From IMG/VR virus record IMGVR_UViG_3300025505_000001, positions 1 through 51,539 of that record: a stretch of 51,539 bases of DNA, one strand, 5' to 3'. The stretch's first letter is position 1. Every line of letters begins with the position of its first letter. The translations under genes were made by a program, and so were the position numbers. Below, one piece after another: positions 28,032 through 50,893 of the stretch. The notes under the pieces are model-generated. The model ran no database searches. It saw nothing but the letters and a program-made list of their open reading frames with translations, and was not told the DNA's origin. The stretch comes from a virus (lineage: Duplodnaviria > Caudoviricetes).

Positions 28032-29003
28032 ATGCCTAACGTCGCAGGCGCAAGCGGAGTAGTCGGCTCAGATACATTTTTCCAAGCCGCTACGAAGATT
28101 GTCAACAAAACGTATCTCAAGAACCAGATTAAGGCACCGTCTTTCTACCCGAGAATCTTCTCGGTCGTAGGAAACGACAAGAGCCGTGGATTTATGACCT
28201 TCCTCCCCATCGTGGAGTTGGGCCTCTTCCCGGTTCGCCCTGAGTTCGCGGGACCCGCGTTCGATAACCCGGGTGAAGGATTGGCGACGACCTACAACTT
28301 CGTCTGCTACTCTCTTGCGTACAAAATCTCCAAAGAGGGACTCCGTCGAGACCCGATGGGCCTTATCCGAAAGATGCCAGCCATGCTGTCGTTCTCGGAA
28401 CAGGTCACGAAGGACGAGTTGTTCATCCAGATGTTGAACCTCGGCTTCACGAACTTCGCCGGAGGCGGGTACAACCTGGCTGACGGCCAGCCGCTCTTCT
28501 CTTCGAGCCATCCTCTTGGGGGCGGAACGATTGCCCAATACGGCACTCAGTCCAACCTCGTGGGCGCGGCTTCCATCTCGCCCGAGTCTATCAACCAAGT
28601 TGATATTCTCTACCAGACCCTTCTCAGCGACCGTGGGAACCCGTCGTTCCGCACCCCGCGTAAGATGATTGCTCCTCCGCAACAGCGGAAGATTGCCGAG
28701 GAAACTCTCGGCTCGTCTCACGCACCGGACAGCAACGACAACCGAATCAACACGGCCTTCGAAGCGTATGAACTCATCATCTGCCGATACCTCACGTCTA
28801 CGACGGCTTGGTTCGTCACTTCGGCCAACGGCGGAGAGGACCTCGAAACCGATACCCACTCGATGATTGTCTCCTTCCAATGGCAGAATGAGACCACGAC
28901 CTGGAGCGACCCAGGTACGGGCAACTTCAACCAGAAGGCAGAGTTCTGTTGCACCTACGGCCCTGCGGACTTCCGTGGAGCAGTCGGGTCACTGGGAGCA
29001 TAA
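28032..29003 (+). CDS. Major capsid protein (HK97 fold, Mu gpT-like family)
   Basis: 323 aa; LADGQPLFSSSHP, PRKMIAPP, YLTSTTAWF, DFRGAVGS motifs. Confidence 0.9.
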   Translation: MPNVAGASGVVGSDTFFQAATKIVNKTYLKNQIKAPSFYPRIFSVVGNDKSRGFMTFLPIVELGLFPVRPEFAGPAFDNPGEGLATTYNFVCYSLAYKISKEGLRRDPMGLIRKMPAMLSFSEQVTKDELFIQMLNLGFTNFAGGGYNLADGQPLFSSSHPLGGGTIAQYGTQSNLVGAASISPESINQVDILYQTLLSDRGNPSFRTPRKMIAPPQQRKIAEETLGSSHAPDSNDNRINTAFEAYELIICRYLTSTTAWFVTSANGGEDLETDTHSMIVSFQWQNETTTWSDPGTGNFNQKAEFCCTYGPADFRGAVGSLGA

Positions 29004-29531
29004 ATGGCACTCACCGTTCCGAGCAAGACCAAGAACAAAAGCCACGACACCCATTCGGTGCAGTACGACGCGGCCTTTACTCTCCAGTTTGGCAACTTCG
29101 CTACACCGACCGGAGTCATCGCGAGTACGGCTATCCAGGCCCAGTATCTCTTGGGTTACTCCACGAAGATTCTGGCCGTCAAGGTCAACGCTGATTCCAT
29201 CACCAATGCCGCTGGTACCTTCGCCTTCAACGTAGCCGCAGGACTCGTTGCAGAGACGGGCGTCTCGCCCCTCAACGATGCGATTGCAACAGCGGGCCAG
29301 AGCATCTTTGCGGCAGACCAAATCATCGCCGTACAGGTTGCCAACGCTACACAGACCTTCGTTCCAGACCAACCGGACGCAATCTGGCTGGGCGGAACGC
29401 GGCTGACTCTACGATTCACGGTCGGAGCCGGAGGCTCAGGAGCGAACGTCACCGTAGCCTTGCTCTGCAAGACCTGGGACAACAAGGGTTCAATCAGCGT
29501 ACCAATCAACTTCGCGACAGACCTGGCATAA
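29004..29531 (+). CDS. Virion structural protein
   Basis: Beta-rich ORF after the capsid gene. Confidence 0.65.
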   Translation: MALTVPSKTKNKSHDTHSVQYDAAFTLQFGNFATPTGVIASTAIQAQYLLGYSTKILAVKVNADSITNAAGTFAFNVAAGLVAETGVSPLNDAIATAGQSIFAADQIIAVQVANATQTFVPDQPDAIWLGGTRLTLRFTVGAGGSGANVTVALLCKTWDNKGSISVPINFATDLA

Positions 29532-29534
29532 CCG

Positions 29535-30020
29535 ATGGGTCGTGCAAGTGGCGCAGGGGTACTCCGAGTCCCGAATACAGGGCCCCTGTATCTACTCAAG
29601 CAGGTCGCAACGAACGTCACCATCGGAGGTGCCGTTCAGCCCGTCGTGCTGATGAAGGACGCTCGGGGCTTTAGCCACTGGACGTTCCAACTTGACCCCG
29701 AAGGAACGACGGTCAATGCTACCATCAACGTCTACGGCTCCAACGACATACGTCTTTGGGGTGGACCGCTTCGGACGACAATGCAGAGTGGTGGAACTGG
29801 AAACGCCCTCCAAGATAGCATCGACTCCGGCTTGGCCTTCAGCACCCAAAACATTCCTCCCGCAGGACTGAACGTCGACACCTTAGCGAACTGGACCGTC
29901 AATGGAACGGGTCCGTTCCAGACCATCGTTTTCCTGGGGCCTCTCGTCGGAGTCTATGCTACAATCACTAACTGGGTTAGTGGAACCATCTCAGTAACAG
30001 GAATGGCCGTCCCCTCCTAG
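29535..30020 (+). CDS. Virion structural protein
   Basis: Beta-rich ORF in the head module. Confidence 0.65.
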   Translation: MGRASGAGVLRVPNTGPLYLLKQVATNVTIGGAVQPVVLMKDARGFSHWTFQLDPEGTTVNATINVYGSNDIRLWGGPLRTTMQSGGTGNALQDSIDSGLAFSTQNIPPAGLNVDTLANWTVNGTGPFQTIVFLGPLVGVYATITNWVSGTISVTGMAVPS

Positions 30021-30053
30021 GTCCTCGCCTCGGTGGGCTAGAATAGGAGAGGT

Positions 30054-30866
30054 ATGGCATCCACAAACGTCACCACCGCATACGTCCTGGCTACCCTCCG
30101 TAATGCTCTCGCTGAGCAGAACTCCACAGGCCGTTGGACAGACCCTCTTCTCCTGAACTGGGTTGACCGTGCCCACAAGGCTCTCGTGAAGAGAGTCTTA
30201 TGGCCGTCTACAACGAACTTGATTTCCTTACAAAACGGGATAGCCACTTACGATATGTCAAGTGACACATTCTTTCCGGCTGGGATACCGCTTCGTATCC
30301 TTCGCATTACAGTGGGTGGGCAAGTCTTGGTTCCCACGACAATCGACATCATGGAGGGAACCCAGACCGATACCTTCGATGATTCCTTTACCCCGACGAT
30401 GGGCACCCAATGGGAAGCCCAAACCCCGCAAACCTATCCCGTGATAACGAACTCGGGAGACGGCCCCATTCCCCAAACGATATGGTCCGCGAACAACGGC
30501 CTTCAACGGCCTCGCTACTACATCCAAGGGCCGCTCTTGGGTATCATCCCCACCCCATCGGGGACCCCGCTCGCCCGCATCTGGAATGTTCCCTCTCCGG
30601 TTACGCTGACGAATGGAGCGTCCGAGACCCTGTTGTTCCCCGACATCGCGACGGACTATGTCGTAGCCAAGGCTCTTGAATTCGCCTATAGAAGCGACGG
30701 AGACAACGACACCGCCAACAACCAACGCTCGATTGCCAAAGAAGAAGAGAGCGAAGTTCGAGAATGGATTCAAGGTCTCCAAGGCGACTTCGGAGAGAGG
30801 CCCCACCCCTGGACGTATCGTAACGGTTTCCAAGGCGGAAGACCCTATCAACGTGGGGGCTGGTAA
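30054..30866 (+). CDS. Head-tail adaptor protein
   Basis: RWTDPLLLNWVDRAH; LGIIPTP; YVVAKALEFAY pattern of podovirus adaptors. Confidence 0.75.
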   Translation: MASTNVTTAYVLATLRNALAEQNSTGRWTDPLLLNWVDRAHKALVKRVLWPSTTNLISLQNGIATYDMSSDTFFPAGIPLRILRITVGGQVLVPTTIDIMEGTQTDTFDDSFTPTMGTQWEAQTPQTYPVITNSGDGPIPQTIWSANNGLQRPRYYIQGPLLGIIPTPSGTPLARIWNVPSPVTLTNGASETLLFPDIATDYVVAKALEFAYRSDGDNDTANNQRSIAKEEESEVREWIQGLQGDFGERPHPWTYRNGFQGGRPYQRGGW

Positions 30867-32782
30867 TGGCTAGTCGTACCCGCCAATCGGAACTTTCTGA
30901 TAATCAACTGCTTCTCCAGATAGGTCCGGTCGTTGGCGTCGACAACACGACCGACCCCTTTCTGCTGGATGAGCAAAGTCGCCCCATTAATGCTAGTGTC
31001 GTTGACATGTCGAACTTCGTTCCCAATAGGACGTATGGGTCCTTGACGACCGGGCAGGGGCGAACTGCCGCCTTGGCGAGTGCCATCCCCAACTGCTCGC
31101 AAGTCCTGGCTATTACGAGGTTCTTCACCGGGACGGGAACTCCGAAACTTCTGTTCGCAATCAAGACGACGGGCAACCAACTGGCCGTCTACAAGGCCGT
31201 ACCCGCAGGAGCCCCCGCACTACTCTTCTCGATAGGAACTGGAGGATTGCCCCCGACTAGAGCGCGGTTTGAAATCTACCAGAATAATTGCTATCTGTCC
31301 TACGGCCCCACGAACGGTGGATTCTCGGGGACAGGACCTCTTCGGATTGATACTTCCTTAGTCCAAAACAACTGGCAAATCGGCGCTCCCCTCAATGTCC
31401 TAGTCTTCCCCGTTCAAACGGGCGGGGGAAACCTAACGGGGGACTACTACTGGCGCTACACGTTCTCCAGCGCCGAACAAGAATCCAGCCCGACTGATTT
31501 CTTGGGAGCCGTCACGTTCGCTGGACAGTTCGCGGCTCTTACACTTCCGACCGCCTCAGCCGACCCACAAGTTTTACACATCAATATATACCGAATGGGA
31601 GGCTCCTCGTCCTCCTGGCTTCAGGTCGCCCAAGTTGCAAACGGGACGGCCACTTTCAACGACAACGTAGCCGACAACAAAATCGGAAATGGGACTCCGC
31701 TAGGCAACACTGGACAGACCCTTGTCGTCCATCGTGACGTACCTCCGTCCTTCAGGGACATGGAGATTTTCCAGGAGAGGCTTTGGGGCTGGACCGATAG
31801 CGTCGACAACGGTGGTATTCCTCCGGGGACCCCCTCGTCCCAATCGTCCTTATGGCAATCCAATCAGTTCGAATCTTGGGGATTCGACAACGTCGATAAC
31901 ATCGAACCTATCTCCGATAACCCAGGCTCTGCCAACACCAACCCCCCTGGAGACGTCGGCATAGCCCTGGCAAAAGTTGGCGGCATGATGGTCGCCTTCA
32001 AACTCAAGAGCACCTGGGCCGTTATCGGTAGTTCTCCGGAAGACACGACGTATCAGCGGCTGTTTGATATCGGTTGCATCTCGACGACCGCCGTCACCAA
32101 GGGTGGCGGGGGGCTGGTCTTCTGGCTCTCCAAGCAAGGTGGGTTCTCGTTCGACGGGACCGACGCTCCTTCAGAGACGACTAAAGACATCAAGACATTC
32201 ATCGACTCTCTAGCGGTGGCCGACTTCCAGGCCGCCGTGGGATTCTTCAGGGACCAGATTTGGTACCTCAGTTTTCCTAATCAGGGAGTGACTTGGGGTT
32301 ACCTCCTCAAAACTCAGAAGTGGCATAAACTCCCGTATGCCCTAGACGCGGTGTACTTCGATGCTGAGACCTTCGAAGTATTCGGTAGCGTTCCGGGCAC
32401 AGGCACCATAAACTCCTGGTTTCAAGCCGAGACGGACCTCGGCAATCCAATCGTCTCGACCTTGACTAGCAAAATCGAAGATAGCGGAAATCCCGAATTC
32501 GCTAAGGACTACAACTTCCTTCTCATCGAGGCTCCTGTTCAAACGGGCACTCTCTCCGTCACGATTGCTCCAGACCCTGGGAGGGCTGGCGGGCCCGCGT
32601 CCACAACACTCAACGTCGATTTGTCCTTGGGGCCGAGACAACTTCTGTCCTTGCCATCGACAATGGTCGGGACCTCGGTTCAACTTAGCCTCTCGATGAC
32701 CTCGTCCGCCAAGACAACGATTAGCAAGGTCCGTCTCTACGGTACTATCAAGAGAGAGTTCATCGGAGTGGGGCCAGGCTAA
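30866..32782 (+). CDS. Tail nozzle / stabilisation protein (P22 gp10- or T7 gp12-like)
   Basis: 638-aa beta-propeller-like; FQERLW, DIGCIS, VFWLSKQG motifs; follows the adaptor. Confidence 0.8.
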   Translation: MASRTRQSELSDNQLLLQIGPVVGVDNTTDPFLLDEQSRPINASVVDMSNFVPNRTYGSLTTGQGRTAALASAIPNCSQVLAITRFFTGTGTPKLLFAIKTTGNQLAVYKAVPAGAPALLFSIGTGGLPPTRARFEIYQNNCYLSYGPTNGGFSGTGPLRIDTSLVQNNWQIGAPLNVLVFPVQTGGGNLTGDYYWRYTFSSAEQESSPTDFLGAVTFAGQFAALTLPTASADPQVLHINIYRMGGSSSSWLQVAQVANGTATFNDNVADNKIGNGTPLGNTGQTLVVHRDVPPSFRDMEIFQERLWGWTDSVDNGGIPPGTPSSQSSLWQSNQFESWGFDNVDNIEPISDNPGSANTNPPGDVGIALAKVGGMMVAFKLKSTWAVIGSSPEDTTYQRLFDIGCISTTAVTKGGGGLVFWLSKQGGFSFDGTDAPSETTKDIKTFIDSLAVADFQAAVGFFRDQIWYLSFPNQGVTWGYLLKTQKWHKLPYALDAVYFDAETFEVFGSVPGTGTINSWFQAETDLGNPIVSTLTSKIEDSGNPEFAKDYNFLLIEAPVQTGTLSVTIAPDPGRAGGPASTTLNVDLSLGPRQLLSLPSTMVGTSVQLSLSMTSSAKTTISKVRLYGTIKREFIGVGPG

Positions 32783-33348
32783 TGGCAATTCTTCCTCATA
32801 TCGAGAACCCGCCTCCCGGAAGAAGTCTTCGTATCTGGACTCCTGGAAAGGGCTGGACGACAGCAAACGTCTCGGGCTTCGCCACGAATCCTACGGTTGC
32901 CGGGAACCAACCTCAGCCTCGTCCCGTCATTGGGAACGACGTGCAGACCGTGACCATCCATATTGCGGCCATCGCGGGTAGTTCAGGACAGCAGTTTACG
33001 GGGAGTGTCACGTTCCCTAACATTCCTCCGTTCAAGCCCAATCATCAGGACCAGGCTCTCTTTCATGTCTACCCAGTTCATCATCCTCAACTCCCGGCTG
33101 GCGTTGCCTACCAGGGGTTGGAGATACGCCCCAGGGCTTCTCAGAACTTGGGCGGTCCGTCGCTGACGGGAGGCTTTACCAGCCCGAGCGCCCCGTTGGA
33201 CCTTGTGGGGGGGCTATCCCCCGGGATAACATACCAGGGATTTTCTGCTGATATCATAGTTACAGGGCTAAACACACAACTTGTCAACTCCATAGGAACA
33301 GACGTGGTCTTCGTTTTTGGGGCCCACATCATCAACCGAACAGGTTAG
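32782..33348 (+). CDS. Tail-associated hypothetical protein
   Basis: TAATG-coupled to the nozzle gene. Confidence 0.65.
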   Translation: MAILPHIENPPPGRSLRIWTPGKGWTTANVSGFATNPTVAGNQPQPRPVIGNDVQTVTIHIAAIAGSSGQQFTGSVTFPNIPPFKPNHQDQALFHVYPVHHPQLPAGVAYQGLEIRPRASQNLGGPSLTGGFTSPSAPLDLVGGLSPGITYQGFSADIIVTGLNTQLVNSIGTDVVFVFGAHIINRTG

Positions 33349-33377
33349 CCGCTCCTTCGGAGCGAAGAGAAGGAAAT

Positions 33378-33677
33378 ATGAACCCGCAACTTCTGATGAT
33401 GCTGATGCAGAACCCACAACTCTTGAGGATGCTCATGCAGCATTTTCAAGGTATGGGAGGCATGGGACGCTTGGGCACAGACATGGGTCAACCCGTCACG
33501 ATGGGCGGCAACCCTCCCAAAGCCGGAGGTATCCCCGAGATGGGTGGTCCCTTCGGACTCCTCGGAGGCCACCAAGGCTTCCTCGGCGGAGACAACAGAT
33601 TGAACAGCCTAACCAAGGGCGGCTCTAAGGGCCTCGGTATGTCAGGTCCCTTCCCCGGCCAGATTGGGGCATACTAA
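33378..33677 (+). CDS. Gly/Met-rich low-complexity protein (ejection-protein candidate)
   Basis: AAGGA RBS; NPQLLxMLMQ duplicated. Confidence 0.65.
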   Translation: MNPQLLMMLMQNPQLLRMLMQHFQGMGGMGRLGTDMGQPVTMGGNPPKAGGIPEMGGPFGLLGGHQGFLGGDNRLNSLTKGGSKGLGMSGPFPGQIGAY

Positions 33678-34348
33678 TGGACCCGGAGACTATTGCGGCT
33701 ATCGTCTCAGCCCTCGGCGGTATCCTCGGACAGGGCCAGCAGAACCGTGAGATAAACGCGGCTGAGGGCGGCCTCAACTATTGGGACCAGCGCATCACTC
33801 AGTTCCTCTCCTATATCAACTCGCCCAAGTTCCTCAACACCATCACTGGCCCCCTCAACCAGCAGTCTGACCTCGCCTTGAAGGACGTGATGAACAAAAT
33901 GGGCGGGGGCATCGTCAACCCTCAGGGCATGATTAACGACTGGCGCGACAAGGCGGCGAGCAACGACGTAACCGCCATAGACTCAGCCAAGTCCTGGATT
34001 GCCTCGACGACTGGCTCTATGGAGCAAAATCAAGCGGGGCAGTACCAGCAGTTGCTCAACACCATCATGGGTCAGGGTAGTCCCCTCGCCGCAGGATTGA
34101 TGGGCGTAGCCAACTCTGGAGCGCTAGAGAAACTCTTCGGCAAGAAGCCCGGCGCAACGGGCGACCCCTCCGGGATGGGGACGAATACCCCGCCGATTGC
34201 TCCTTACAATCCGGCTCCGTCTTTGCCACCCTTCGGGTCTGTCGGGCTTCCGGCGGTCAACCCGACAGCCGTGGGCGGAAGCGGATACTTCGGCGGCGGC
34301 AACGGATACGCAGGGTCGAACTACCCCAACTACTCGACGGCGGCTTAA
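33677..34348 (+). CDS. Internal virion (ejection) protein candidate
   Basis: MDPETIAAIVSALGGILG hydrophobic Gly/Ala start typical of ejection proteins. Confidence 0.7.
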   Translation: MDPETIAAIVSALGGILGQGQQNREINAAEGGLNYWDQRITQFLSYINSPKFLNTITGPLNQQSDLALKDVMNKMGGGIVNPQGMINDWRDKAASNDVTAIDSAKSWIASTTGSMEQNQAGQYQQLLNTIMGQGSPLAAGLMGVANSGALEKLFGKKPGATGDPSGMGTNTPPIAPYNPAPSLPPFGSVGLPAVNPTAVGGSGYFGGGNGYAGSNYPNYSTAA

Positions 34349-34351
34349 CTC

Positions 34352-35734
34352 GTGGCTGACTCTACGCCAGAGCAAGCAGGATGGGGCGATGTCTGGAACA
34401 CAATTACCCAGGCTATTAAACACGCCGAAGGCACCGTCGACCACGCCCTTCAAGGGCATCATGTAGACTCCCTCTTCAAGAACTCTGACATCTACGGCCC
34501 CTCTTTGAGAGCGGCCTTGCCTCGGCACACCACGATGGGCCCTCAGCCTTCGGCTGATTACGGGCTGACGGGCCTTCCTGGCCCGAAGGCCAAGGGCTCG
34601 ATACCCGGAGCGGCAGGGCTTCTCGGTGACGCGGCCTCGATGATTCCCGGGGGACCCGGCCCGGAGTTCGAGGCCCCTCGAATCATCGCAAGCACCGAGG
34701 ACTGGCTGAAGCACGTCGCCAATCTGAAGAAGCAGTTGGGCACACGAGACCTTCTCCCGGGCTCAACTGGTTCGATGCAGGCTATCATAAATCACATCTC
34801 TAATACCCGAGACCCGGGTACCAATGTAGGAGGCATGAATGCATTTCTTAGCCAGGCTATGAGACTCGTCAACCAAACTAAAGCCCACATGGAAAACGTC
34901 CTCCGAACAACCCCCAACCGGGCTAGAATCTTGATTGAAGATTTGGAGACGGCCCTCCCCGTGATAGCCAAGACCAAGAAGTCTCTGCCTAAAGTCACGA
35001 CCGCTACAGGAGCCTTCAAACTCCTCCAAAAGGCGGGCTCGGATTTGGACCCGGTCCTTCACGCACAAATTATGGCTAAGAACGCCCTCCTGGGGTCAGT
35101 CGGTAAGGACGCCGCCAAGCAAGGGGCCGCTAATCTGGACTTCGCTCTCGACGAGAGGGCCCGAGCCAAGGCGGCTCTGACAAAGGCAACGGACGCCTCA
35201 GAGTTGGTCCCCTTCATCGAATCGACGCGCCGTGCTCCGTACCCGGGGGGGCAAGAGAATATCCTCGACCCTGAACTGCACGAAGCCTTGCTCAAGAAGT
35301 TTGATTTGCTAAGTGAGGTCGGTGAGCACCAAGGGAAGGCTTTCGCGAAGAACTTAGACAGTGCGCTCCTCACTCGGGCTCGGGCGCTGGAGCACTTGCG
35401 GAAACCTGCAAGCACTCCGGACCAATGGAGGACTGTAAGCGGCAACCTCAAACACTTGGACCCAGATGTCTACAACGCTTGGCGGCAACATGAAGCGATG
35501 GGACATTCCAACAATAATTTCCTGACTCCCGGCGAGTTCTCTCGAAGCCGTAACCCGTTCGAAGCATTCTCGACGACGGAGTGGCCCCCGTATTCTGAAG
35601 AGGCGGGGATAGGGATGCCCAAAGATGTATGGCATCATGGCCTAGAAGAGCGAACTCAAATGGACCTGATGAGACTCCTCCAGCAAATCTCCGCTAAGCA
35701 AGGCCTCAAGGACCTCCCCGGAGGCGGCCTCTAA
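34352..35734 (+). CDS. Internal virion protein candidate
   Basis: 460-aa helical ORF in the ejection module. Confidence 0.65.
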   Translation: MADSTPEQAGWGDVWNTITQAIKHAEGTVDHALQGHHVDSLFKNSDIYGPSLRAALPRHTTMGPQPSADYGLTGLPGPKAKGSIPGAAGLLGDAASMIPGGPGPEFEAPRIIASTEDWLKHVANLKKQLGTRDLLPGSTGSMQAIINHISNTRDPGTNVGGMNAFLSQAMRLVNQTKAHMENVLRTTPNRARILIEDLETALPVIAKTKKSLPKVTTATGAFKLLQKAGSDLDPVLHAQIMAKNALLGSVGKDAAKQGAANLDFALDERARAKAALTKATDASELVPFIESTRRAPYPGGQENILDPELHEALLKKFDLLSEVGEHQGKAFAKNLDSALLTRARALEHLRKPASTPDQWRTVSGNLKHLDPDVYNAWRQHEAMGHSNNNFLTPGEFSRSRNPFEAFSTTEWPPYSEEAGIGMPKDVWHHGLEERTQMDLMRLLQQISAKQGLKDLPGGGL

Positions 35735-37056
35735 TGCGCTTTGCTTTCTACTGCACCGAGGGCTACAGCCTCTGCCTCTGGAATCGTCTTCTCGAAGAGG
35801 GCTTCGAGGTCTTGGTCTACATCGAGGCGCAGGACTACAAAGAAGTCGGAGACGGCATAGTCGAGAAAGCCGGGACCTTCGACGAATTGAAGAAATGGGC
35901 CGGAGACGATGCTGTCTGGGTCTTCGACGGAAACGGTGCGGCAGACAAGGCTGACGCCTTAAGGGCGCAGGGCCGACTGGTTATCAACGACGGCTCCTTC
36001 TCGAAGAGACTAGAGAGCGATAGAATGTGGGGAGAAGAACTTGCCAAGACCTACGGGATATCCGCTCCCGAGACCAAACGATTCAAGACGCTTGACGAGG
36101 CTATGGGCTTCCTGGAAAAGGTCGATGGCGAAGATTATTGGTACTTTAAGAGCGACAAGTACCTGGAGGGCTCTGCCACCTTCGGTACTGAAGCGGAGCA
36201 CCTTGTTCCCTACCTCACTCATCTCAAGTCTCGATTTGGAAATAGCCGCCCTTGCATCCTCCAGAAGCAACTCGAAGGGGTCGCCATCTCTACCAATGCT
36301 TGGTTTAACGGAAGCATCTTCGTTCCGCCGTTCGGCGGGACCATCGAGCATAAGAAGTTTCTCGAAGGAGACAAGGGCCCCCACACCGGATGCCAGATAA
36401 ATCTAGGGTGGCACTACGAGGATGTTCCGACGATTGCCAAGGAGTTGCACTTCGAAGAGATGGCCTCCTTCTTCCGCAAGATGAAAGCGGGTCCTGGGGT
36501 CTATGACATCAACGCCCTCATCTCGTCCGAGGACGAGAAGCCGTACTTCCTTGAGTGGACGCCCCGCTTCGGGTACGACTCCGAGGCCTCGGCCTTCAAT
36601 CGAATCAAGGGGACCCTCGGAGAGTTCCTGTACGCCCTCGCCTCGGGGACTCTCGCAGAGGCTCCGTTCGACACGGGGACCCTCGACGTATCGACCCGTT
36701 TGAGCATTCCGCCCTATCCCTGGGAACACATCGACAAGAACCCTGTAGAGCGGAAGAAGCATACCGGAACTCCCGTAGGGGGAACCGATACCCTGTCGGG
36801 GCCGCCCTTCGCGGCTTACGGGCTGGCTCGGGACGAGGAGGGCCTGTACGTTGCGGACCCCTATGGCTTAGTCGGAATAGCCTGCGCCGTAGGCACCAAT
36901 CTGGGGGCTCTCTGCGAGGAAATCAACGAGACCGCCGAGAAGATAGCCGTAGGAACCCCCAACCTCCAATGGCGAGCGGACGCCCTGGAGACCCTTCAGG
37001 GAGACCTAGATATGCTCCAGGAACTCGGATACCTGACCCATGAGGCGCTAGACTAA
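35734..37056 (+). CDS. PurD (GAR synthetase)-like ATP-grasp ligase
   Basis: ADALRAQG...RLESDR...YGISAP, ILQKQLEGVAIS, EHKK, GPHTG, FLEWTPRFGYD; lacks PurD GSGGREH. Confidence 0.8.
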   Translation: MRFAFYCTEGYSLCLWNRLLEEGFEVLVYIEAQDYKEVGDGIVEKAGTFDELKKWAGDDAVWVFDGNGAADKADALRAQGRLVINDGSFSKRLESDRMWGEELAKTYGISAPETKRFKTLDEAMGFLEKVDGEDYWYFKSDKYLEGSATFGTEAEHLVPYLTHLKSRFGNSRPCILQKQLEGVAISTNAWFNGSIFVPPFGGTIEHKKFLEGDKGPHTGCQINLGWHYEDVPTIAKELHFEEMASFFRKMKAGPGVYDINALISSEDEKPYFLEWTPRFGYDSEASAFNRIKGTLGEFLYALASGTLAEAPFDTGTLDVSTRLSIPPYPWEHIDKNPVERKKHTGTPVGGTDTLSGPPFAAYGLARDEEGLYVADPYGLVGIACAVGTNLGALCEEINETAEKIAVGTPNLQWRADALETLQGDLDMLQELGYLTHEALD

Positions 37057-38402
37057 TGGCTGGACTTCCCTTCCCTGGCGGGGGCGCGCCCGCTATCCAG
37101 ATGGCTAACCCCTGGGGCCAAGTAGCCCAGGCGGCTTCTCAGTTTGGACCAGCCCACGAGCAGTTCCTTCAGCAGAAGGCTCAGACCGCTGACATGCAGA
37201 TGACGGTCAACCTCAAGAAGTTGACGATGCTTCAGCAGTTGCTGAAGACGGCTCCTGCTTCGGAGGATGGCGACCCTAAACTCATAGCGACCGCGAGGGA
37301 CCTCTACTCCTCGATTGGCATGAGCCTGCCCATGAAGGGCAATATGCTCGACCGCGAAGCGATGGGCATACACGCCCCTTGGCAAGATTTGCTCTCGTCG
37401 GACTCCGCGACCTACAACTACTTCTCGGCCCTCGATGGCGGGAAGAAGGGTGATGTCGGGACCCAGCGGGACAACTGGCTCATCGCGCACAACATTGACC
37501 CCGCGTCGCTTCCGGACAGCATCCGATATGCTCCGGCTTATCAAGTCACGTCTCCGGCTGAAGCCACGACGATGTTCGACAAGGCCCAAGCCAGCATCGA
37601 AGACCTCGCTAAGGGAATTGGAGACCCTACAAACATCCAGAACGACTTACTCCATCTGGCGCTTCCAGTCGACCGTATCCTAGGTCCAGGAACTATGGAG
37701 TCCCTGGCGTCCAAATTGAGCGCCCAGATAGGGCCCTGGGTCTCGGCGAAGATTGCTCAAGCCTATAACACGGGCCAACTGGATAACTCCAAGATTCAAG
37801 AGATTGGGGCACGAATCAAGAATCTCGATTCGATAACGAACCTAGACAAGAAGAAAGCCGCCGCACAGGACATCATCAACGAGTACCTTCCGCAAACGAC
37901 TATGTCTCGGATTGCCTCGAACTACGCAAGAGTCTCGGAAGCGAGTGCCGCCGTCACCCGGGCCAATAGTTATGCCGACCAAGTCCAGAGCAACATCACG
38001 ATGGCATCTCGGATGGTTCCGAACTCAAAGCCCTGGCTGGCCGCCGTCAAGTCCCTTGATTCCGAAACGGCCAACCTTACCAAGGCACAGACCGACGCTC
38101 GGAACAAGATGTATGCGTTGGGAAACCTCGCGAATCCTACTCCCCAAGACACGGCCCATCTCGCTGTTGCTCGACAAACGGTTGCCGACCTAGGGACTCG
38201 CATCCACAGTCTTCAGGTCCAGGGAGATACTCTGAGGTCGGGGTCCGGAGTTCCTACCGCTCCTGCCTTGCCCGATACGAGTTCGTTCAGCCGACAGAAT
38301 CCTCCGGAGGACCTACAGCAAGGAACCCACGACGGGCACACCTACACTTGGGACCCCCACGCGACCGCACCTGACGGAAGCCAGGGTGCATGGACACCGT
38401 AA
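37056..38402 (+). CDS. Internal virion (ejection) protein candidate
   Basis: 448-aa A/Q-rich helical protein. Confidence 0.65.
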   Translation: MAGLPFPGGGAPAIQMANPWGQVAQAASQFGPAHEQFLQQKAQTADMQMTVNLKKLTMLQQLLKTAPASEDGDPKLIATARDLYSSIGMSLPMKGNMLDREAMGIHAPWQDLLSSDSATYNYFSALDGGKKGDVGTQRDNWLIAHNIDPASLPDSIRYAPAYQVTSPAEATTMFDKAQASIEDLAKGIGDPTNIQNDLLHLALPVDRILGPGTMESLASKLSAQIGPWVSAKIAQAYNTGQLDNSKIQEIGARIKNLDSITNLDKKKAAAQDIINEYLPQTTMSRIASNYARVSEASAAVTRANSYADQVQSNITMASRMVPNSKPWLAAVKSLDSETANLTKAQTDARNKMYALGNLANPTPQDTAHLAVARQTVADLGTRIHSLQVQGDTLRSGSGVPTAPALPDTSSFSRQNPPEDLQQGTHDGHTYTWDPHATAPDGSQGAWTP

Positions 38403-41400
38403 ACGCGGCTCCGTTGCCTCTGGGCGAGGGGAATCTACAACCGCTTCCTCTTGCGGAGTCTCCATCGACGCCTTCGCCTACTCCTAAGCCGAAGAAGCCG
38501 GGGGTTCCTAAAGCCACCCCTGCTCCTAACCTGAGTCCCAAGTCCCACCCGACTGGTAAACCTGTCCCGGGGGCGCTCCCCCTGGCGGACTCTTCGCCTA
38601 TCCAACTTCAGCCGAACGCTACGGCTGGTGGTCCCCTTGGGGCTGGCGTGGACTTCGCAACTGCCGCAATCGGAGACATCGCCCAGGCGGGTGAGGCCGC
38701 GACCATTGGGGTCGGAGAGACCATTTTTCATACCGCCGTAGGGCTCGCCAACTCCCTGAATGAACACGCAGATATCGCTCCACAAGGTTCTCTTCAACAG
38801 GGCGTTCCCGCCGCCGCTAACGCCTATTGGAAACTCAGCCGAAGTTTCCCCGTTCCGGGGATGGACGGAGGCCTAGGCAAGTCCTTCACTCAGGAGGACG
38901 CCCAGAATCTTCTGGCCGAAGGCCATTACACGGGCGACGCAATTCAATCTCTCATCGAGACGGCCAGGACGCACCCCGGCACTGTAGCGGGACACGTCGC
39001 GGCTCAGGCCCTGATGACGTTCTTCCCTTATACGAGCGTTGCGAACTGGGCGGCCAAGGGTGCCGAGGCTGCTAAGGCCGCACACGCCGCCGCGTTCGGA
39101 ACCCGAATGGCTACTGACGCGGCTTTCAGCGGAGAGACCATCGAGGCCGCCGCCAATGCTCACGAGACCATGCTCGCCAGGGCGACAGGTCGAGGCTCAG
39201 CACGTCCAGGAAGCCCTGGGAAGATTTGGGCTATCGACCCGAAGTTTGACCCGAACGTCTCAGGAAGCGTAAAGCCCAAACTCTTCAATCGTTCGCGCGA
39301 TGAGGGCAAGTTCCGGAAGAAGCCCGTCGTCGCTTCGATTCGGTTGGTCCCGGGAGCAGGGGGGTCTCCTCCGCATGGAGCGGTCGGAACCCACGGAACT
39401 ACTTTCAAGTTCGGAGACCCGGTCAACGCTACTCGTCTTATCCATCAAGACGGCCACTTCGTCAATGTCTCGGGGCCGCTCTCTCAAGCCCTTAACGGCG
39501 CGGGCATTATCCTACGGGAACCCATCAAACTCGAAGACGGAACTCTCATCAAGCAACCGCTCATCTCGGCGGCGTTCGGGATGTTCGATATGTCGAAGGG
39601 CTCGACAGACCCTATCGTGGCCGCCGAACAGATGAAGTCGGTCCTCCTCGGGAAGCCCATGAGAGATATTCAGGTCTTTCATCCTGACCCGGTCATGCAA
39701 GAGATTTGGCAGAGGGCCTTTGGAATCATCCACGGTATCGACTCCCCGGCTTACGCCGTAGACCCGGACATCCTCGCCTTGGGCAAGATGGACATAAACC
39801 AGGCCGAGATAGCCGCTGGCCTGGAGTCGGTCGACCGATATAACTCTGAGAAGACCATGCAGAACCTGATGCGGGGCGAACTCGAAGCGGGCATCAAGAA
39901 GCAAGTCACGGACCACAAGACAACGCCCTCAGCGGTCGGACAGTTTACTCACGACCACGGTCGAGACTCTACGCAGGTCGTCCCGGAAGCCGCCGCCGCC
40001 AGGATGGTCGGCGCATCCTTCGATGTGATGTTTGGCTTCATGCGAAGCCTGGGGATGAAGGTCGACCTTCGTACCGACTACGTTCCGATGATGGTTGAGG
40101 AAGGCCACGCAAGCGTCAACCAGGCTCTCGACATCGCTCGCCTCATCAAGGGCGGACCACACCTCAGAGGTATCCTCATTGAGGCCGGAGTCCCTGCGGA
40201 GCATCTTCCGGACGGGTCGGCCAACAAGATGCCCGGCGCGGGTCAACGAGGCTACATCCAGTTCGGGGGACACCACGGACCCATCGACGATGAGACGGAC
40301 CTCCCGAGTCTTCTGCACTACAAACGGGGGGATGACTACCAAGACCCCTGGATGGCTAAGGGGGGCGATACTCCCATCCTCGATGCACACGGTCGTCTAC
40401 AGGACGAGGGAGAAGACGCCAAGGCCAAGTTCGTATATGACCACAAGACGGGGAAGGTTCACTTCTTTTCCCCTGCCCGGTACCATTCCGAATACGCTGG
40501 CTCTAACGGGATGGGAACCACCCACGATTACAGCACGGGGGGTATCCACGACAATACGGCCCTAGTGTATTATCACGGGACCGAGGCCTACCGCAAACCC
40601 CAAGAAGAGGGCACAGGAACATTTTGGGATTCCAACAAGGGTAAGATTCCACCGTATGCTCAAATCACTACAAAGACATTAACAGAAAAAGCCCAACGAG
40701 AGTGGAACGCCAACGGGATGTCCCCCGACGCAAACATCTCGAAACTAAAGAAGAAGGGCCAGAGGGGCTTCATCTCCACGAGGAAAGAACCTCCGAGCGC
40801 GACCAACAAGCATGACCTCCGAGGCGACCCCAAGCGCGTAATCGCTAGGGTGCTCAAGGCGGCTCGACCTGACATGGAGCCGACCGCGCTGGCTCAGTTG
40901 ATTAGCGAGACCCAGACGGCTTTGCAGGCTAAGGTTGATGAGTCCTACTTCGAAAAGGCCATCAAGATGCAACGCACTCAGGGTGTCGCAAAGGGCGGGA
41001 ACTACGGTATGACCTTGACGTTTGACCACGTCATGCACCAGGGGTCGACCTGGGAAGGCATCGAGCAACTCAGCAAAGATACGGGCGTCCCGCTCACCCC
41101 CATCCGAGAAGTGGATAGGCTTATCGGGCGACAGTTTATGAACATCGCGGACAACGTCCGGAAGGTCCGTCTGGTCAACGCACTTCGCGGAGCAAGAGTC
41201 GTTCAAGAAAAGGACGGGCCGGGGCTCGACAGAGTTGAGGTCGGAACCGATGCTATCTATCTGCCGTCGAAGGTAGCCGAGTTCGTCAAGCGGGTGATTC
41301 CTCCGCAGGAAAACTTCCAATGGTTCAAGTCCTTTCTTCGAGGAGCATCCGCCTGGTCGAAGGAGGGTACGGTAAACTGGAACCTCGCTATCCACGCGAA

Positions 41401-42568
41401 GACCCTGACGACGGGAACCCTCGCGGGTCTCGACTGGAGTGACCTCCTCAATTCTGGGGAGGACTTCATCAACGCCGTCAAAGCGGTCAAGGAGTACGGC
41501 CCCATTCTCTATGAGATGGCTCAGGCCGGAAGCAACGTCGACCACATGGTTTCGCAGTATGGTTCCATCTTCAAGCAAGCCGGAGAATACATTGAATCCC
41601 ACGCGGGCCCGCTCGGCATTACTGGCAAGCCCTTGGTGGCCTTGGGCAAGTACCAGGACACCGTTCATAAGGTTCTGTTCGATGAGTACGCTCGGTACCT
41701 CGTCGCCACGACCTATATGGGATTGAAGCGTGAGTACGGCAAGAAAGGAATGTCTGAGGCCTTCGCTCAGCGGGCGGCGGCCAAGATGTCGAACGACATT
41801 CTGGGTATCCCTTCGGACGTAGACGTAAACACCTGGCTCCCCAAGTATGGCTACCTCTTCATGTTCGCCCCGCTCTTCAAGGCCGGGTCCTTCCGCGCGA
41901 TGGGTCGGATGGCCGGAGGCTTCATCCCGGCGGCGGCCTCTCCGGCTGAACGTCAGGTTATGATGCAGAGCGCAATCAACATCAATCTGAAGGCCATGTT
42001 CATCCAGATTGTCGTGACGAACCTTCTGCAACACGCCTTGACGGGAACCTACTCTTGGCAGAACCAGCCCGGGCATCAACTCGACATCGACACCGGAATG
42101 AAGGGAGTGACCCCCTCAGGGAAGGGCGAGCACGTCTTCGTCAGGCTGAAGGACTTCAATACGGACCCCGAGGTCTTCATCATTAAGTTCTTAGCGGCTC
42201 AGGAAGAAGCGGCGGCGGCAGGCAAGAAGCCTGACCTATCGCCTATCGTATCCGAGGGCACGTCCTTGGGCGGACCCATCGAGAAGGTCATTCTGGACGT
42301 GACCGAGGCCGCCGCTCAGAAGAAACTCGACACAGACTTTGCAACGACCGAGGAACTAGAGTTCGCCACTCCCGGCTGGATACAGGGTGGGCTCAAGCCC
42401 TTCGGGGCCTTCCCTCTGCGTAGCACCGAAGCCAAGTTGCCGCCGGAAGCCTTGCTCTGGGTGGCCTTCGGCTTTAGCCCCTTCGGGGTAGCCCCTCCAA
42501 AACAGGCCTCAGGGGGTCTCGGCCTAGGAGGATTGGGCACCATGAATCCAAAAGGACCTAAACTGTAA
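38390..42568 (+). CDS. Large internal virion protein (1392 aa)
   Basis: Largest ORF at end of the ejection module; helical C-terminal region with hydrophobic segments. Confidence 0.75.
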   Translation: MDTVNAAPLPLGEGNLQPLPLAESPSTPSPTPKPKKPGVPKATPAPNLSPKSHPTGKPVPGALPLADSSPIQLQPNATAGGPLGAGVDFATAAIGDIAQAGEAATIGVGETIFHTAVGLANSLNEHADIAPQGSLQQGVPAAANAYWKLSRSFPVPGMDGGLGKSFTQEDAQNLLAEGHYTGDAIQSLIETARTHPGTVAGHVAAQALMTFFPYTSVANWAAKGAEAAKAAHAAAFGTRMATDAAFSGETIEAAANAHETMLARATGRGSARPGSPGKIWAIDPKFDPNVSGSVKPKLFNRSRDEGKFRKKPVVASIRLVPGAGGSPPHGAVGTHGTTFKFGDPVNATRLIHQDGHFVNVSGPLSQALNGAGIILREPIKLEDGTLIKQPLISAAFGMFDMSKGSTDPIVAAEQMKSVLLGKPMRDIQVFHPDPVMQEIWQRAFGIIHGIDSPAYAVDPDILALGKMDINQAEIAAGLESVDRYNSEKTMQNLMRGELEAGIKKQVTDHKTTPSAVGQFTHDHGRDSTQVVPEAAAARMVGASFDVMFGFMRSLGMKVDLRTDYVPMMVEEGHASVNQALDIARLIKGGPHLRGILIEAGVPAEHLPDGSANKMPGAGQRGYIQFGGHHGPIDDETDLPSLLHYKRGDDYQDPWMAKGGDTPILDAHGRLQDEGEDAKAKFVYDHKTGKVHFFSPARYHSEYAGSNGMGTTHDYSTGGIHDNTALVYYHGTEAYRKPQEEGTGTFWDSNKGKIPPYAQITTKTLTEKAQREWNANGMSPDANISKLKKKGQRGFISTRKEPPSATNKHDLRGDPKRVIARVLKAARPDMEPTALAQLISETQTALQAKVDESYFEKAIKMQRTQGVAKGGNYGMTLTFDHVMHQGSTWEGIEQLSKDTGVPLTPIREVDRLIGRQFMNIADNVRKVRLVNALRGARVVQEKDGPGLDRVEVGTDAIYLPSKVAEFVKRVIPPQENFQWFKSFLRGASAWSKEGTVNWNLAIHAKTLTTGTLAGLDWSDLLNSGEDFINAVKAVKEYGPILYEMAQAGSNVDHMVSQYGSIFKQAGEYIESHAGPLGITGKPLVALGKYQDTVHKVLFDEYARYLVATTYMGLKREYGKKGMSEAFAQRAAAKMSNDILGIPSDVDVNTWLPKYGYLFMFAPLFKAGSFRAMGRMAGGFIPAAASPAERQVMMQSAININLKAMFIQIVVTNLLQHALTGTYSWQNQPGHQLDIDTGMKGVTPSGKGEHVFVRLKDFNTDPEVFIIKFLAAQEEAAAAGKKPDLSPIVSEGTSLGGPIEKVILDVTEAAAQKKLDTDFATTEELEFATPGWIQGGLKPFGAFPLRSTEAKLPPEALLWVAFGFSPFGVAPPKQASGGLGLGGLGTMNPKGPKL

Positions 42569-42930
42569 TGTTTCACTTGACAGCAATTGCGGCTTTGCTT
42601 ACGGCTACGACCGCGACCTACACCGAGAGTATCCCTTCGGGGTTCTCCCCGCTGGTGAGCACTCTGCTGGCGGTTGCGGCGGTGCTCACGTCCCTGGGGT
42701 CCTGCATCGCGGGTATCGCATCTGTGATGGGCTACTTCAAGAGCAAGGACAACCACACCTTGGCCCTCGATACCCACGCGATGGTCGACGGTCAGCGGTC
42801 GTCTATGGTGGCTCTCGTGGATAACCTGAAAGCGACTGTCTCCCAGCAAAAGGAAGATGCCGCTGTCATCGCGGCAGGCACCTTGAAGGACGCTCAGGCG
42901 TTCGTCCCGGCTCCCCCCCCGAAGGGGTAG
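42568..42930 (+). CDS. Membrane protein (holin/spanin-like candidate)
   Basis: Hydrophobic N-terminal segments followed by coiled coil. Confidence 0.6.
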   Translation: MFHLTAIAALLTATTATYTESIPSGFSPLVSTLLAVAAVLTSLGSCIAGIASVMGYFKSKDNHTLALDTHAMVDGQRSSMVALVDNLKATVSQQKEDAAVIAAGTLKDAQAFVPAPPPKG

Positions 42931-42966
42931 GCCCAGGGGGAAAGGGTAAGGCCCTGAGCCTATATC

Positions 42967-43037
42967 TTTGAGTGGAGGGAATTGAACCCCCGACTGATGG
43001 TCCCAGGCCACCCGCGTTACCACTACGCCACACCCAA
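42967..43037 (-). tRNA. tRNA-Pro(UGG)-like, atypical, no encoded CCA
   Basis: Cloverleaf: TTGGGTG/CACTCAA acceptor; GCGT/ACGC D arm; GGTGG-CCTGGGA-CCATC anticodon arm; GGGGG-TTCAATT-CCCTC T arm. Confidence 0.8.
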
Positions 43038-43211
43038 TCAGTGACGCGAAGAGTTCGCCCTGATGGTCTGCTCGACCTCCCGCACGTCGTAGTACCAAGA
43101 GTTCGATAGGCGGTATCCGACTATCCAGCCTCGCTGACGCCATCTCGTGATAGTGCCTGCGGAGACGTTTAGCAGGACGGCCAGTTCCTTCGAGCGATAG
43201 AGAGTCCGCAT
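43038..43211 (-). CDS. Excisionase/MerR-like HTH DNA-binding protein
   Basis: AAGGAGG RBS; SKELAVLLNVSAGTITRWRQRG. Confidence 0.8.
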   Translation of the reverse strand: MRTLYRSKELAVLLNVSAGTITRWRQRGWIVGYRLSNSWYYDVREVEQTIRANSSRH

Positions 43212-43263
43212 GGGTTGGCCCTCCTTCGGAGAGATACCCATGTGGACTTTGTAGGTGTCGGGA

Positions 43264-43470
43264 TTAGAGGTCGATGTAGGGGGCATCTTGCGGCCAGCCT
43301 TTGGAGGCTTTCGGATTGAGGGCCAGGTCGCCGTCGACCTCGACTTCGGTGACATCTAGGTAGGGCATCCCCAGTGCTACGATTTTGTCTAGGGCCGCTT
43401 CCTTCGTTGAGAAGATGCCGTAGAGGTTAACGAAGTACATATCGGAGTTGCAGACTAGATAGACTTTCAA
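43264..43470 (-). CDS. Hypothetical protein
   Basis: TTG start overlapping the upstream stop; KVYLV...GIFSTKEAA. Confidence 0.65.
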   Translation of the reverse strand: MKVYLVCNSDMYFVNLYGIFSTKEAALDKIVALGMPYLDVTEVEVDGDLALNPKASKGWPQDAPYIDL

Positions 43471-44300
43471 GATAGCACCTTCGCCGTCAGGCGTTCCCTC
43501 TCTCCTGTTGAGTATTTGTGGCACTTGGGATTGATGCACCAGTATTGGCGGAGCCGATAGGTCTTCAGGTTCTTGAAGCCGCGCTTCTGGGTTTTGCTTC
43601 CGCAGACGGGGCATCGAAGAGACTGGTTTGTATCCAGGGTGATGTTGGGGTGGGTGTCATCCCACGCTCTGATTCGGTCATAGAACTTCTCCGATAGGAT
43701 TACATCCTTGGCGTTGTACTTCTTCAGCAAGGCCCAGGACTTCGGGTCGCCTCGCATACAGCCCAACCACAACTCAAAGCCGTAGTGCTTGACTTTCTGG
43801 CCGATGCCGAGGGCCTTGCAGAGGTCATCTAGTTTGTTGGAGTTGAATGCGAAAACCTTCTTGATGAGTTTGAGAGTGTCGACTGTCTTGTAGGGGGAAG
43901 GGGGTGTTAGGCCATGCAGGAGGAACTGAGCATTGATGCGCTTGAGGTCGAACTTGTCGATGTTGTGGCCTACGATGAGGTCCGCTCCATCCAAGACATG
44001 CCAGAGGGCCTCCACGAGAACTTTGTCGCTGAATGGGTAATTCTTGTAGAGCGAGAAGTCCGGCAAGGCCCAGGTGACTGGGCGCTTGCCTCGCTCCTTG
44101 GACGAGAAGGAGAGCATGTATCTCTCCCTCTCGAAGGCGATGACGTTTTGCTCCCACTTGTCCCAGGTGTATCCTAGGTTGGGGGCCGTCTCGATGTCAA
44201 GGAATACGACCTTGTATCTAGGCGAAGGGATTACTGGAAGCCCCGCCGCCTGAGCCGCCTGTTGAGGCGAAGGCTTGGCCTGCCTTGAAGGTGACTTCAT
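43467..44300 (-). CDS. DEDD 3'-5' exonuclease (RNase H-like) with C-terminal zinc ribbon; start uncertain
   Basis: FLDIET, VGHNIDKFD, YNAKDV; CPVCG...C. Confidence 0.88.
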   Translation of the reverse strand: MKSPSRQAKPSPQQAAQAAGLPVIPSPRYKVVFLDIETAPNLGYTWDKWEQNVIAFERERYMLSFSSKERGKRPVTWALPDFSLYKNYPFSDKVLVEALWHVLDGADLIVGHNIDKFDLKRINAQFLLHGLTPPSPYKTVDTLKLIKKVFAFNSNKLDDLCKALGIGQKVKHYGFELWLGCMRGDPKSWALLKKYNAKDVILSEKFYDRIRAWDDTHPNITLDTNQSLRCPVCGSKTQKRGFKNLKTYRLRQYWCINPKCHKYSTGERERLTAKVLS

Positions 44301-50884: not shown

Positions 50885-50892
50885 GCTATACT
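50864..50892 (+). promoter_or_regulatory. Rightward promoter for primase-helicase
   Basis: TTGACA-17 nt-TATACT with extended TG. Confidence 0.8.
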
Positions 50893-50893
50893 C

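Follow-up and report, generated by a model that had tools for sequence, protein, structure and literature searches.

A PurD-like ATP-grasp ligase family, distinct from PurD, in the late operons of uncultured phages

A PurD-like ligase in a podophage genome

The IMG/VR virus record IMGVR_UViG_3300025505_000001 (Duplodnaviria; Caudoviricetes), whose entire 51,539 nucleotides were analyzed here and are referred to as the window, is a 51.5-kb podophage genome with a CheckV completeness of 100%. Its late operon contains a gene for an ATP-grasp enzyme that descends from PurD, the phosphoribosylamine--glycine ligase or glycinamide ribonucleotide (GAR) synthetase of purine synthesis. The phage protein keeps the four-domain fold of PurD and is not itself a GAR synthetase; judging from its residues, it is very probably an active ATP-grasp ligase that does something else. 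The gene resides strictly in late operons across at least 7 genome architectures, and the family of PurD-like ligases to which it belongs is not virus-only.

We confirmed that the open reading frame (ORF) is real, beyond chance: its closest homologue is 49% identical, a word-index search returned 105 cluster representatives (25-49% identity, many on contigs of 42-58 kb), and an AlphaFold2 (AF2) model built on an alignment of 34 relatives is confident, with a predicted local distance difference test score (pLDDT) of 93.5 and a predicted TM-score of 0.91. A preceding sequence-only reading of the window had described one-base TAATG overlaps with the genes on both sides, three retained ATP-grasp motifs and the loss of the N-terminal GGREH motif of PurD, all of which are present as it described them. 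The gene and its parts are as follows (domain limits are approximate and follow the secondary structure of the model).

35734..37056, + strand: PurD-fold ATP-grasp ligase gene (protein P0001); ORF with ATG start, 440 residues; Pfam GARS_A, 6.8e-8
35732..35736, + strand: TAATG, one-base TAA/ATG overlap of the stop of the upstream gene g460 with the ligase start
37054..37058, + strand: TAATG, in which the TAA of the ligase and the ATG of g448, the next gene downstream, share one base
35734..36009, + strand: N domain, about residues 1-92, without the G-x-G-G-R-E-H loop (PurD alignment; no GARS_N)
36010..36669, + strand: ATP-grasp B and A domains, about residues 93-312, aligned to PurD chains over residues 72-312
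36346..36357, + strand: EHKK motif, residues 205-208, equivalent to PurD D-H-K-R, with the glycine-contacting acid and the ATP-contacting Lys
36376..36390, + strand: GPHTG loop, residues 215-219 (motif read; column counts)
36502..36513, + strand: Y-D-I-N, residues 257-260; D-x-N in 136/136 relatives, where PurD has Y and Q/E/G
36553..36573, + strand: EWTPRFG, residues 274-280, the family signature; E-x-T for PurD E-x-N; R278 equivalent to the acyl-phosphate/glycine Arg of PurD
36670..37053, + strand: C domain, about residues 313-440, with PPYPWE and W-R-A-D; R414 and D416 common to PurD; distant relatives reach Pfam GARS_C

Relationship to PurD

By fold, the ligase is closest to PurD. All of the top 15 rows of a Foldseek comparison with the PDB were PurD at full length, with query-normalized TM-scores (TMq) of 0.70-0.76, 15-20% identity and 424-456 alignment columns, and were followed in the ranking by biotin carboxylase, PurK and PylC. 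These full-length matches indicate that the ligase is a complete four-domain (N-B-A-C) PurD-fold protein. A library of viral structures held no full-length PurD-like match to the model (best TMq, 0.44).

Sequence comparisons pointed to PurD from a greater distance. Pfam recognized GARS_A alone (residues 96-241) and neither GARS_N nor GARS_C, while a sequence search of solved structures returned PurD chains only (best, 2yrw, 1.1e-10, residues 72-312) and PHROGs returned no family. Against TIGR00877, the NCBIfam equivalog model of purD, the ligase scored 49.9 bits over model positions 82-355 of 425 only, far below the curated cut-off of 288 bits, which a true PurD (P0105) exceeded with 438.8 bits.

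Set beside PurD (EC 6.3.4.13; TIGR00877; PDB 2qk4, 2yw2, 2ys6, 1gso), the ligase has the same four-domain fold, is expected to share its ATP-grasp chemistry, and retains E94, K139, K207, the GP-x-TG loop, E274, R278, P329, R414 and D416. It differs in overall identity (15-23%), in lacking GARS_N and the GGREH loop, in a new invariant D-x-N pair, and in having no purine pathway context. The stretch of the ligase that aligns with the GGREH loop is unrelated to that of P0105, and across the PurD-like family it is replaced by unconserved sequence. The E-x-N of PurD is E-x-T in 136/136 PurD-like rows. Further along the same signature, the Asp of the PurD motif R-[LF]-G-D-P-E is replaced at the aligned place in the ligase by an aromatic residue (R-F-G-Y-D-S-E), and in 66 of 86 viral-type rows the position after it is an Asp.

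These differences can be read against published contacts. In human GARS, Arg13 is proposed to help bind the acyl-phosphate or phosphate and Glu14 to orient the ribose of phosphoribosylamine (PRA), while glycine is contacted by Asp217, Arg292, Asp295 and Glu297 (PMC2978367). In Aquifex PurD, ATP is contacted by Lys103, Lys143, Glu185, Glu192 and Lys214, and glycine by Asp212, Arg287 and Glu292 (PMC8880213). By alignment, the published substrate contacts correspond to R97, K139, K207, E205 and R278 of the ligase, and the glycine-site positions appear to survive as E205 and R278, together with D282 in most viral members. From these correspondences we infer that the machinery for ATP and acyl-phosphate and the site for a small carboxylate are intact, that the metal ligands have been rewired, and that the PRA acceptor site is gone.

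Invariant residues and inteins

To define the family we aligned 136 PurD-like proteins, comprising 81 from viral loci (the window included), 5 from contigs of metagenome-assembled genomes (MAGs) whose place in the tree is within viral clades, and 50 cellular proteins, together with 4 true PurDs. Although identity to the ligase of the window drops to ∼25% among these rows, E94, K139, E205, G215, D258, N260, E274, T276, R278, G280, R414 and D416 are invariant in 136/136, and R97 and K207 in 135/136. The B and A domains carry the catalytic residues E94, R97, K139, E205, K207, D258, N260, E274, T276 and R278, and the features expected of the ATP-grasp superfamily (an ATP-binding Lys, acidic metal ligands and an acyl-phosphate Arg) are present as K139, E205, K207, D258, E274 and R278. 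The D258/N260 pair is probably a pair of Mg ligands. Column counts also single out E22, G23 and G41 of the N domain as near-invariant and family specific. The invariance of the ATP-grasp catalytic residues makes it very likely that the protein actively ligates a carboxylate to an amine, and that this amine is not PRA.

A second line of support comes from relatives of 749-1123 residues, which bear Hint and LAGLIDADG inserts and are intein-containing proteins rather than fusions. The inserts lie between the T and R of the signature in four proteins, directly after D-L-N in one and beside the GP-x-TG loop in one. Inteins tend to be inserted where important genes are most conserved, and their placement within the catalytic motifs independently supports the importance of those motifs. 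We note that the intein-bearing relatives (P0134, P0137, P0174, P0218, P0179, P0236 and P0158) have three different active-site motifs interrupted, and that the 1123-residue protein seems to have two inserts. Among proteins of 799-2280 residues we found no fused form of the ligase, which is weak evidence.

Family size and phylogeny

The family is large. When 1.84 billion representatives were searched with a profile, 7978 matched at E<=1e-3, 4618 of them at 1e-10 or better and 1052 at 1e-30 or better; true PurD will be among the weaker matches. Many relatives carry the JGI label "phosphoribosylamine--glycine ligase." We confirmed 273 loci in IMG/VR and found 285 relatives in a collection of species-representative genomes, and analyzed the best 80 of the 273 and the best 80 of the 285. 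From the latter set, 20 loci without a clustered ligase ORF (a result of crude gene calling) were left out, and 5 proteins outside 380-560 residues were left out of the tree.

Cultured phages appear to lack the gene: a tblastn search of 50,697 GenBank phage records with the window protein and two distant viral members found it in no cultured phage. The one full-length relative among these records belongs to a metagenomic phage, MW202796.1, and the other matches are bacterial purD in contaminated or mislabeled records. In MW202796.1 (locus L001, 27167-43832) the ligase ORF, at record positions 42167-43441, is unannotated, and the GenBank annotation places a GNAT acetyltransferase four genes upstream of it in the same tail/late operon.

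A FastTree phylogeny separates the family from PurD, with the four true PurD rows falling outside the 136 PurD-like rows and the window in a viral clade of 12 rows (support, 100). The ligase is thus not nested within cellular PurD, in line with the earlier reading, and it has the markers of the PurD-like family: LE-[WFY]-T-P-R-[FLC]-G-[YW], the D-x-N pair, no GARS_N, and a position apart from true PurD. The tree matches genome architecture, with groups A and E (described below) supported at 100 and groups D and F at 98, which indicates that the gene has long been inherited within phage lineages.

Residence in the late operon

In the window, a gene for a primase-polymerase/helicase is split by the ends of the record, with the Prim-Pol part at 50883-51539 (219 codons) and an in-frame continuation with PriCT_1 and AAA_25 at 1-1197 (398 codons), so that the record is a circularly permuted complete genome. 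The ligase lies in a + strand block (21207-42930) with the following landmarks.

21207-22874, late block: large terminase (phrog_38, 9.3e-53)
23393-25435, late block: SU10-type portal (Pfam/PHROGs)
28032-29003, late block: capsid protein (Pfam/PHROGs)
30054-30866, + strand: SU10-type adaptor (Pfam SU10_adaptor, 3e-16)
30866-32782, + strand: g638, phrog_511 "internal virion protein" (1.2e-13, residues 169-280 only)
34352..35734, + strand: g460, upstream orphan, Ala/Leu/Gly-rich; no family match
37056..38402, + strand: g448, downstream orphan; no family match
38390..42568, + strand: g1392, giant orphan; no family match; polyvalent-protein domains in the nearest named Atlas clusters

The adaptor and g638 lie upstream of the ligase on the same strand, with overlapping junctions, and are syntenic with it in the related group A loci; they anchor the ligase within the tail/late part of the operon. 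Past g638 the order is small Gly-rich genes, g460, the ligase, g448, g1392 and a gene for a 120-residue protein. The TAATG overlaps on both sides of the ligase had been taken to tie it to its neighbors. Both overlaps are real, but they mark no special tie, as TAATG occurs at 6 of the 18 consecutive junctions of the block. A consensus scan of the + strand turned up nothing resembling a terminator or a promoter from about 29000 to 43500, and, given how frequent TAATG is, the ligase gene is best seen as one regular, fully integrated component of a long late operon. Replication genes begin ∼6 kb downstream of the ligase, from 43038 onward and mostly on the opposite strand, and include PolA fused to a uracil-DNA-glycosylase domain, exonucleases, a Sak4-like protein and endonuclease VII. 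None of the 63 phage ORFs scanned with Pfam (18 + 45) is a pur gene, in agreement with the earlier reading.

The genes that flank the ligase are more obscure. No match to g460, g448 or g1392 was found in Pfam, PHROGs, NCBIfam or PDB sequences, and neither tblastn nor phmmer found a relative of the flanking genes of the window in 81 loci. The sole relative found for g1392 is 83% identical. An Atlas search gave no usable match for g448; for g1392 it returned viral hypothetical clusters and, at 0.94, an LPD38 polyvalent-protein-domain cluster with shared features below the bar of the tool, making the polyvalent-protein link a weak lead. The flanking genes are Ala-, Gly-, Leu- and Gln-rich, and our guess from this composition is that they may resemble fast-evolving internal proteins.

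We extended the comparison to 80 counted viral loci (L001-L081 without L067), all with a clustered ligase ORF and with the window excluded. Locus ORFs were called and clustered by BLASTP, and one representative per cluster was annotated with Pfam and PHROGs, for a total of 178 neighbor representatives (48 + 130 of 143; thirteen of more than 900 residues were left out). A cluster for a terminase, portal, capsid, adaptor, "virion structural protein" or tail fiber is found within 8 ORFs of the ligase on the same strand in 68/80 loci, bearing out the predicted linkage to virion and packaging genes. Such hallmark genes lie upstream in 62 loci, downstream in 30 and on both sides in 24, and both neighbors of at least 100 residues are on the ligase strand in 63. 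Only one locus (1/80) has a replication-type cluster within 3 ORFs of the ligase on its strand. Most of the 12 loci that lack a hallmark are truncated or come from lineages with unannotated neighbors.

The loci fall into several architectures. In group A (the window and L002-L012) the order is capsid, adaptor, g638-like gene, small genes, ligase, a gene of 396-529 residues and a gene of 800-1400 residues; the 396-529-residue gene directly follows the ligase in 10 of 11 loci, and in L012 it follows one 60-residue opposite-strand ORF. Group B has a structural protein, the adaptor, two large genes, the ligase, and tail spikes with GDSL, pectate-lyase-like or K1-lyase domains, and group C has portal, capsid, small genes, ligase, structural proteins and adaptor. 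In groups D, E and F the ligase and preceding small genes lie between terminase and portal, which in group E is T7-type.

Several neighbors are of interest in their own right. A gene for a peptidoglycan hydrolase or holin lies within 4 ORFs of the ligase in 13/80 loci, with Tlde1-domain, Hydrolase_2, Phage_lysozyme, Peptidase_M15_3, Peptidase_M15_4 and GTA_holin_3TM families represented. In five loci (L028, at 9621-9995, as well as L047, L051, L014 and L022) a 125-residue protein with a Tlde1 domain (Pfam, 1.1e-14), an L,D-transpeptidase-like domain of type VI effectors, adjoins the ligase and is probably a phage cell-wall enzyme.

Another family of ∼125 residues, c13, directly adjoins the ligase in 11/80 loci of three genome architectures (L056:6009-6392, L052:9561-9947, L036:9533-9997, L014:11209-11598 and 7 more) and is absent from the window. 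It has the invariant motifs H-x(3)-R-Y-x-T-x-G-D, H-E-x-x-E and A-P-Y-x(3)-H, and matched nothing in Pfam, PHROGs or PDB sequences. The weak best fold matches of its AF2 model (pLDDT, 91.4) are all zincin-like metallohydrolases (YbeY-like, Z 5.4; selecase, 5.3; PprI; SPRTN; abylysin), and on the basis of this model c13 may be a mini metallopeptidase-like partner of the ligase. By hidden Markov model comparison the neighbor families c13, c37 and c38 are mutually unrelated, and g120 of the window matches none of them.

A cellular clade outside purine synthesis

Fifty cellular genes form one clade (support, 99), made up of 27 from haloarchaea, 6 from Bdellovibrio, 10 from other archaea and 7 from other MAGs, with the metagenomic phage MW202796.1 as its sister. 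Five further MAG contigs, from Acidobacteriaceae, Terracidiphilus and others, group inside viral clades and seem to be of phage origin. The cellular clade has the invariant residues of the family, including E22, G23 and G41 of the N domain. Its members are found among ordinary chromosomal genes on mixed strands, including catalase-peroxidase, P-type ATPase, carotenoid, peptide transporter, aminotransferase, M1 peptidase and sensor kinase genes.

The cellular clade argues strongly for a function of the family that is not part of purine synthesis. In 3/3 haloarchaeal genomes tested, a true PurD (385-402 bits) is encoded in addition to the paralogue (89-100 bits). Two of five cellular genomes tested, the Bdellovibrio chromosome G002 and a 1.7-Mb archaeal MAG, encode the paralogue only, with no purD, purM or purF over the cut-off. 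The 27 haloarchaeal genes of the clade, which carry the family signature, have ordinary chromosomal surroundings and are ∼25-30% identical to the ligase of the window.

These observations agree with Brown et al. 2011, who judged two "extra" PurD-like proteins of haloarchaea (Hlac_1553 and rrnAC0307) not to be GAR synthetases (PMC3261824). The defects described there are the same as those of the phage ligase: no GARS_N, a divergent N-terminal loop and an unconserved PurD signature Asp (PMC3261824). By published description, not by sequence, Hlac_1553 and rrnAC0307 would be members of the cellular clade.

We also note that among the Bdellovibrio loci L093, L098, L103, L109 and L114 the paralogue adjoins a gene for a solute-binding protein in 3/5, and that a gene with a glutamate-synthase domain is next in L098 and L103.

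Possible functions of the ligase

We propose that ATP would phosphorylate a small carboxylate, which, by analogy with PurD, is probably an amino acid, and that an amine other than PRA would attack the resulting acyl-phosphate. The product could be needed for the particle: a component of the virion or of the ejection machinery could receive an amide while the particle is assembled, or the enzyme or its product could be packaged and delivered. The ligase is made with virion proteins and not beside replication genes, which points to the particle as the most likely place where its product is needed. This argument draws on the late-operon residence, on the absence of the gene from replication and nucleotide modules, and on its position after the adaptor and g638 and beside a giant orphan. 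We put forward this putative particle-tied role tentatively, with the balance of evidence from the sequences falling slightly short of making it probable. A more specific candidate, in which several uncultured podophage lineages carry the ligase as a particle-directed enzyme that aminoacylates virion or ejection proteins, loads an amide product, or is delivered with the DNA into the next host, is rather unlikely in that detailed form.

Several observations weigh against a role tied to the particle. The position of the ligase within the late operon varies by lineage, which fits a late enzyme better than the partner of one virion protein, and no neighbor cluster accompanies it across lineages. 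The cellular clade has neither virion context nor a conserved partner, and its retention of the same invariants suggests a substrate common to cells and not a phage-specific protein. The composition of the ligase is strongly acidic (71 D+E versus 42 K+R). The sequence-only reading had placed internal-virion genes on both sides of the ligase, a label that no Pfam, PHROG, NCBIfam or PDB sequence family backs for g460, g448 or g1392. The viral counts, drawn from the best 80 of 273 loci, are biased toward the query, and the tree was made with FastTree only, with local supports and a root branch at 88. On the whole, that reading, in which a virion-associated ligase modifies or cross-links ejection proteins or is injected as an effector, stands in rejecting a purine gene and in its linkage to virion genes; the flanking genes are at best putative ejection proteins, and the variable position and the cellular clade without virion context count against the narrower form of that reading.

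The strongest alternative is that the ligase acts late in the infected cell but not for the particle. It would make a small-molecule amide or modify a substrate that is common in cells, for instance a polyamine-type amine, an envelope precursor or another metabolite, with the late operon providing timing alone, for example for lysis, exclusion or host shutdown. PurD and its nearest relatives act on small molecules, and the cellular clade and the varying operon position are as this alternative would have them. So is the lysis gene within 4 ORFs in 13 loci, together with the lack of a recognized endolysin in the window; the former frequency, however, is about what chance would give for one endolysin per ∼70-gene phage (an estimate, not a computed control). 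A murein precursor is excluded as the family-wide substrate because haloarchaea and Nitrososphaerota have no murein, and the gene is not in the replication/nucleotide module where phage metabolic genes usually reside. Nor did the 178 neighbor representatives include a decarboxylase, a racemase, a GNAT acetyltransferase or a C39 or S51 peptidase. We consider such a late enzyme possible, though with the evidence leaning clearly the other way.

Far less likely is that the protein is a structural or ejection protein that re-uses the PurD fold with its catalysis lost. Phages do recruit enzyme folds as structural parts, and the site between large orphan genes of the late operon would suit such a protein, but the ATP-grasp catalytic positions are invariant over the 136 rows, inteins lie exactly in the catalytic motifs, and the cellular relatives have the same residues.

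The least probable reading of all is that the gene is a true purD with an auxiliary role, encoding a diverged GAR synthetase that would raise the supply of purines for the DNA synthesis of the phage: PurD is indeed the best match in Pfam, NCBIfam, PDB sequences and PDB folds, the JGI label says as much, and virome papers count purD/GART as a viral auxiliary gene (PMC11360552, PMC11097641), but this reading is contradicted by the score far below the purD cut-off, the missing GGREH loop and GARS_N, the universal E-x-T, cotranscription with late and not replication genes, cellular relatives that occur without purF/purM or else beside a true PurD, the verdict on the haloarchaeal paralogues, and the lack of purF or any other pur gene in the phage, PRA being very short-lived (PMC2978367).

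Other features of the phage genome

Neither Pfam nor PHROGs recognized an endolysin, holin or spanin among the scanned ORFs of the phage. The last gene of the late operon (42568-42930) encodes a protein of 120 residues with a single long hydrophobic stretch (residues 22-55) that could be a holin. Elsewhere in the genome we note the following.

48081-50411, - strand: family A DNA polymerase, a single 776-residue protein that combines a uracil-DNA-glycosylase-superfamily domain at its N terminus with a 3'-5' exonuclease domain
16630-17031 and 17009-17344: tandem overlapping genes for GroES-type (Cpn10) co-chaperonins (2e-17 and 1.1e-11), early or middle region
1717-6041, + strand: three consecutive Gly/Ser/Thr/Ala-rich orphan proteins (335, 363 and 742 residues), each with an N-terminal hydrophobic stretch, outside the late block; these could be fiber, receptor-binding or secreted proteins

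Comparison with known systems

Published counterparts of the ligase include the viral "purD/GART" auxiliary genes of virome surveys, which carry the same automatic label as many of its relatives (PMC11360552, PMC11097641); one survey has viral purD/GART copies outnumbering cellular ones (PMC11360552/PMC11097641). Those surveys treat the genes as purine metabolism, against which our evidence argues, and by label, not by sequence, the survey genes are probably mislabeled members of the ligase family. A full-text literature search turned up no account of PurD-like ligases encoded in the virion modules of phages, and by that search the family is in print as a remark on two haloarchaeal paralogues and, probably, as the mislabeled viral gene. 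Genes of this kind that annotation pipelines name "phosphoribosylamine--glycine ligase" are not purine genes, and the corrected annotation defines a large enzyme family without a known substrate that in phages is fixed in the morphogenesis operon. Haloarchaea and Bdellovibrio offer a genetically tractable route to its reaction, transferable to the phage question.

Other phage ATP-grasp enzymes belong to the same superfamily and presumably also form amides in the virus. They include an early cassette of amidoligase, glutamine amidotransferase and ATP-grasp genes in LUZ24-like phages (PMC3890496, PMC6209634) and RimK-, TTL- and R2K-type ligases in jumbo and giant viruses (PMC7824862). These differ from the ligase described here in family, in residing in early or metabolic modules, and in their size of ∼270-300 residues.

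With the ejection-protein genes of podoviruses, the ligase shares a place in the late operon after adaptor/nozzle-like genes and beside a very large orphan protein, while PHROGs gave no homology of the ligase, g460, g448 or g1392 to known ejection proteins (0 families). Enzymes are known in or among the ejection or internal proteins of phages, including the transglycosylase domain of T7 gp16, the virion RNA polymerase of N4 and Alt of T4; to our knowledge, no ATP-dependent ligase has been described among them. Should the ligase act on or travel with the particle, ATP-dependent amide ligation would join the ways in which phages finish or arm their virions, as an undescribed step of virion maturation or host takeover, and the cellular paralogues in Haloferax-type archaea and Bdellovibrio would give access to its chemistry.

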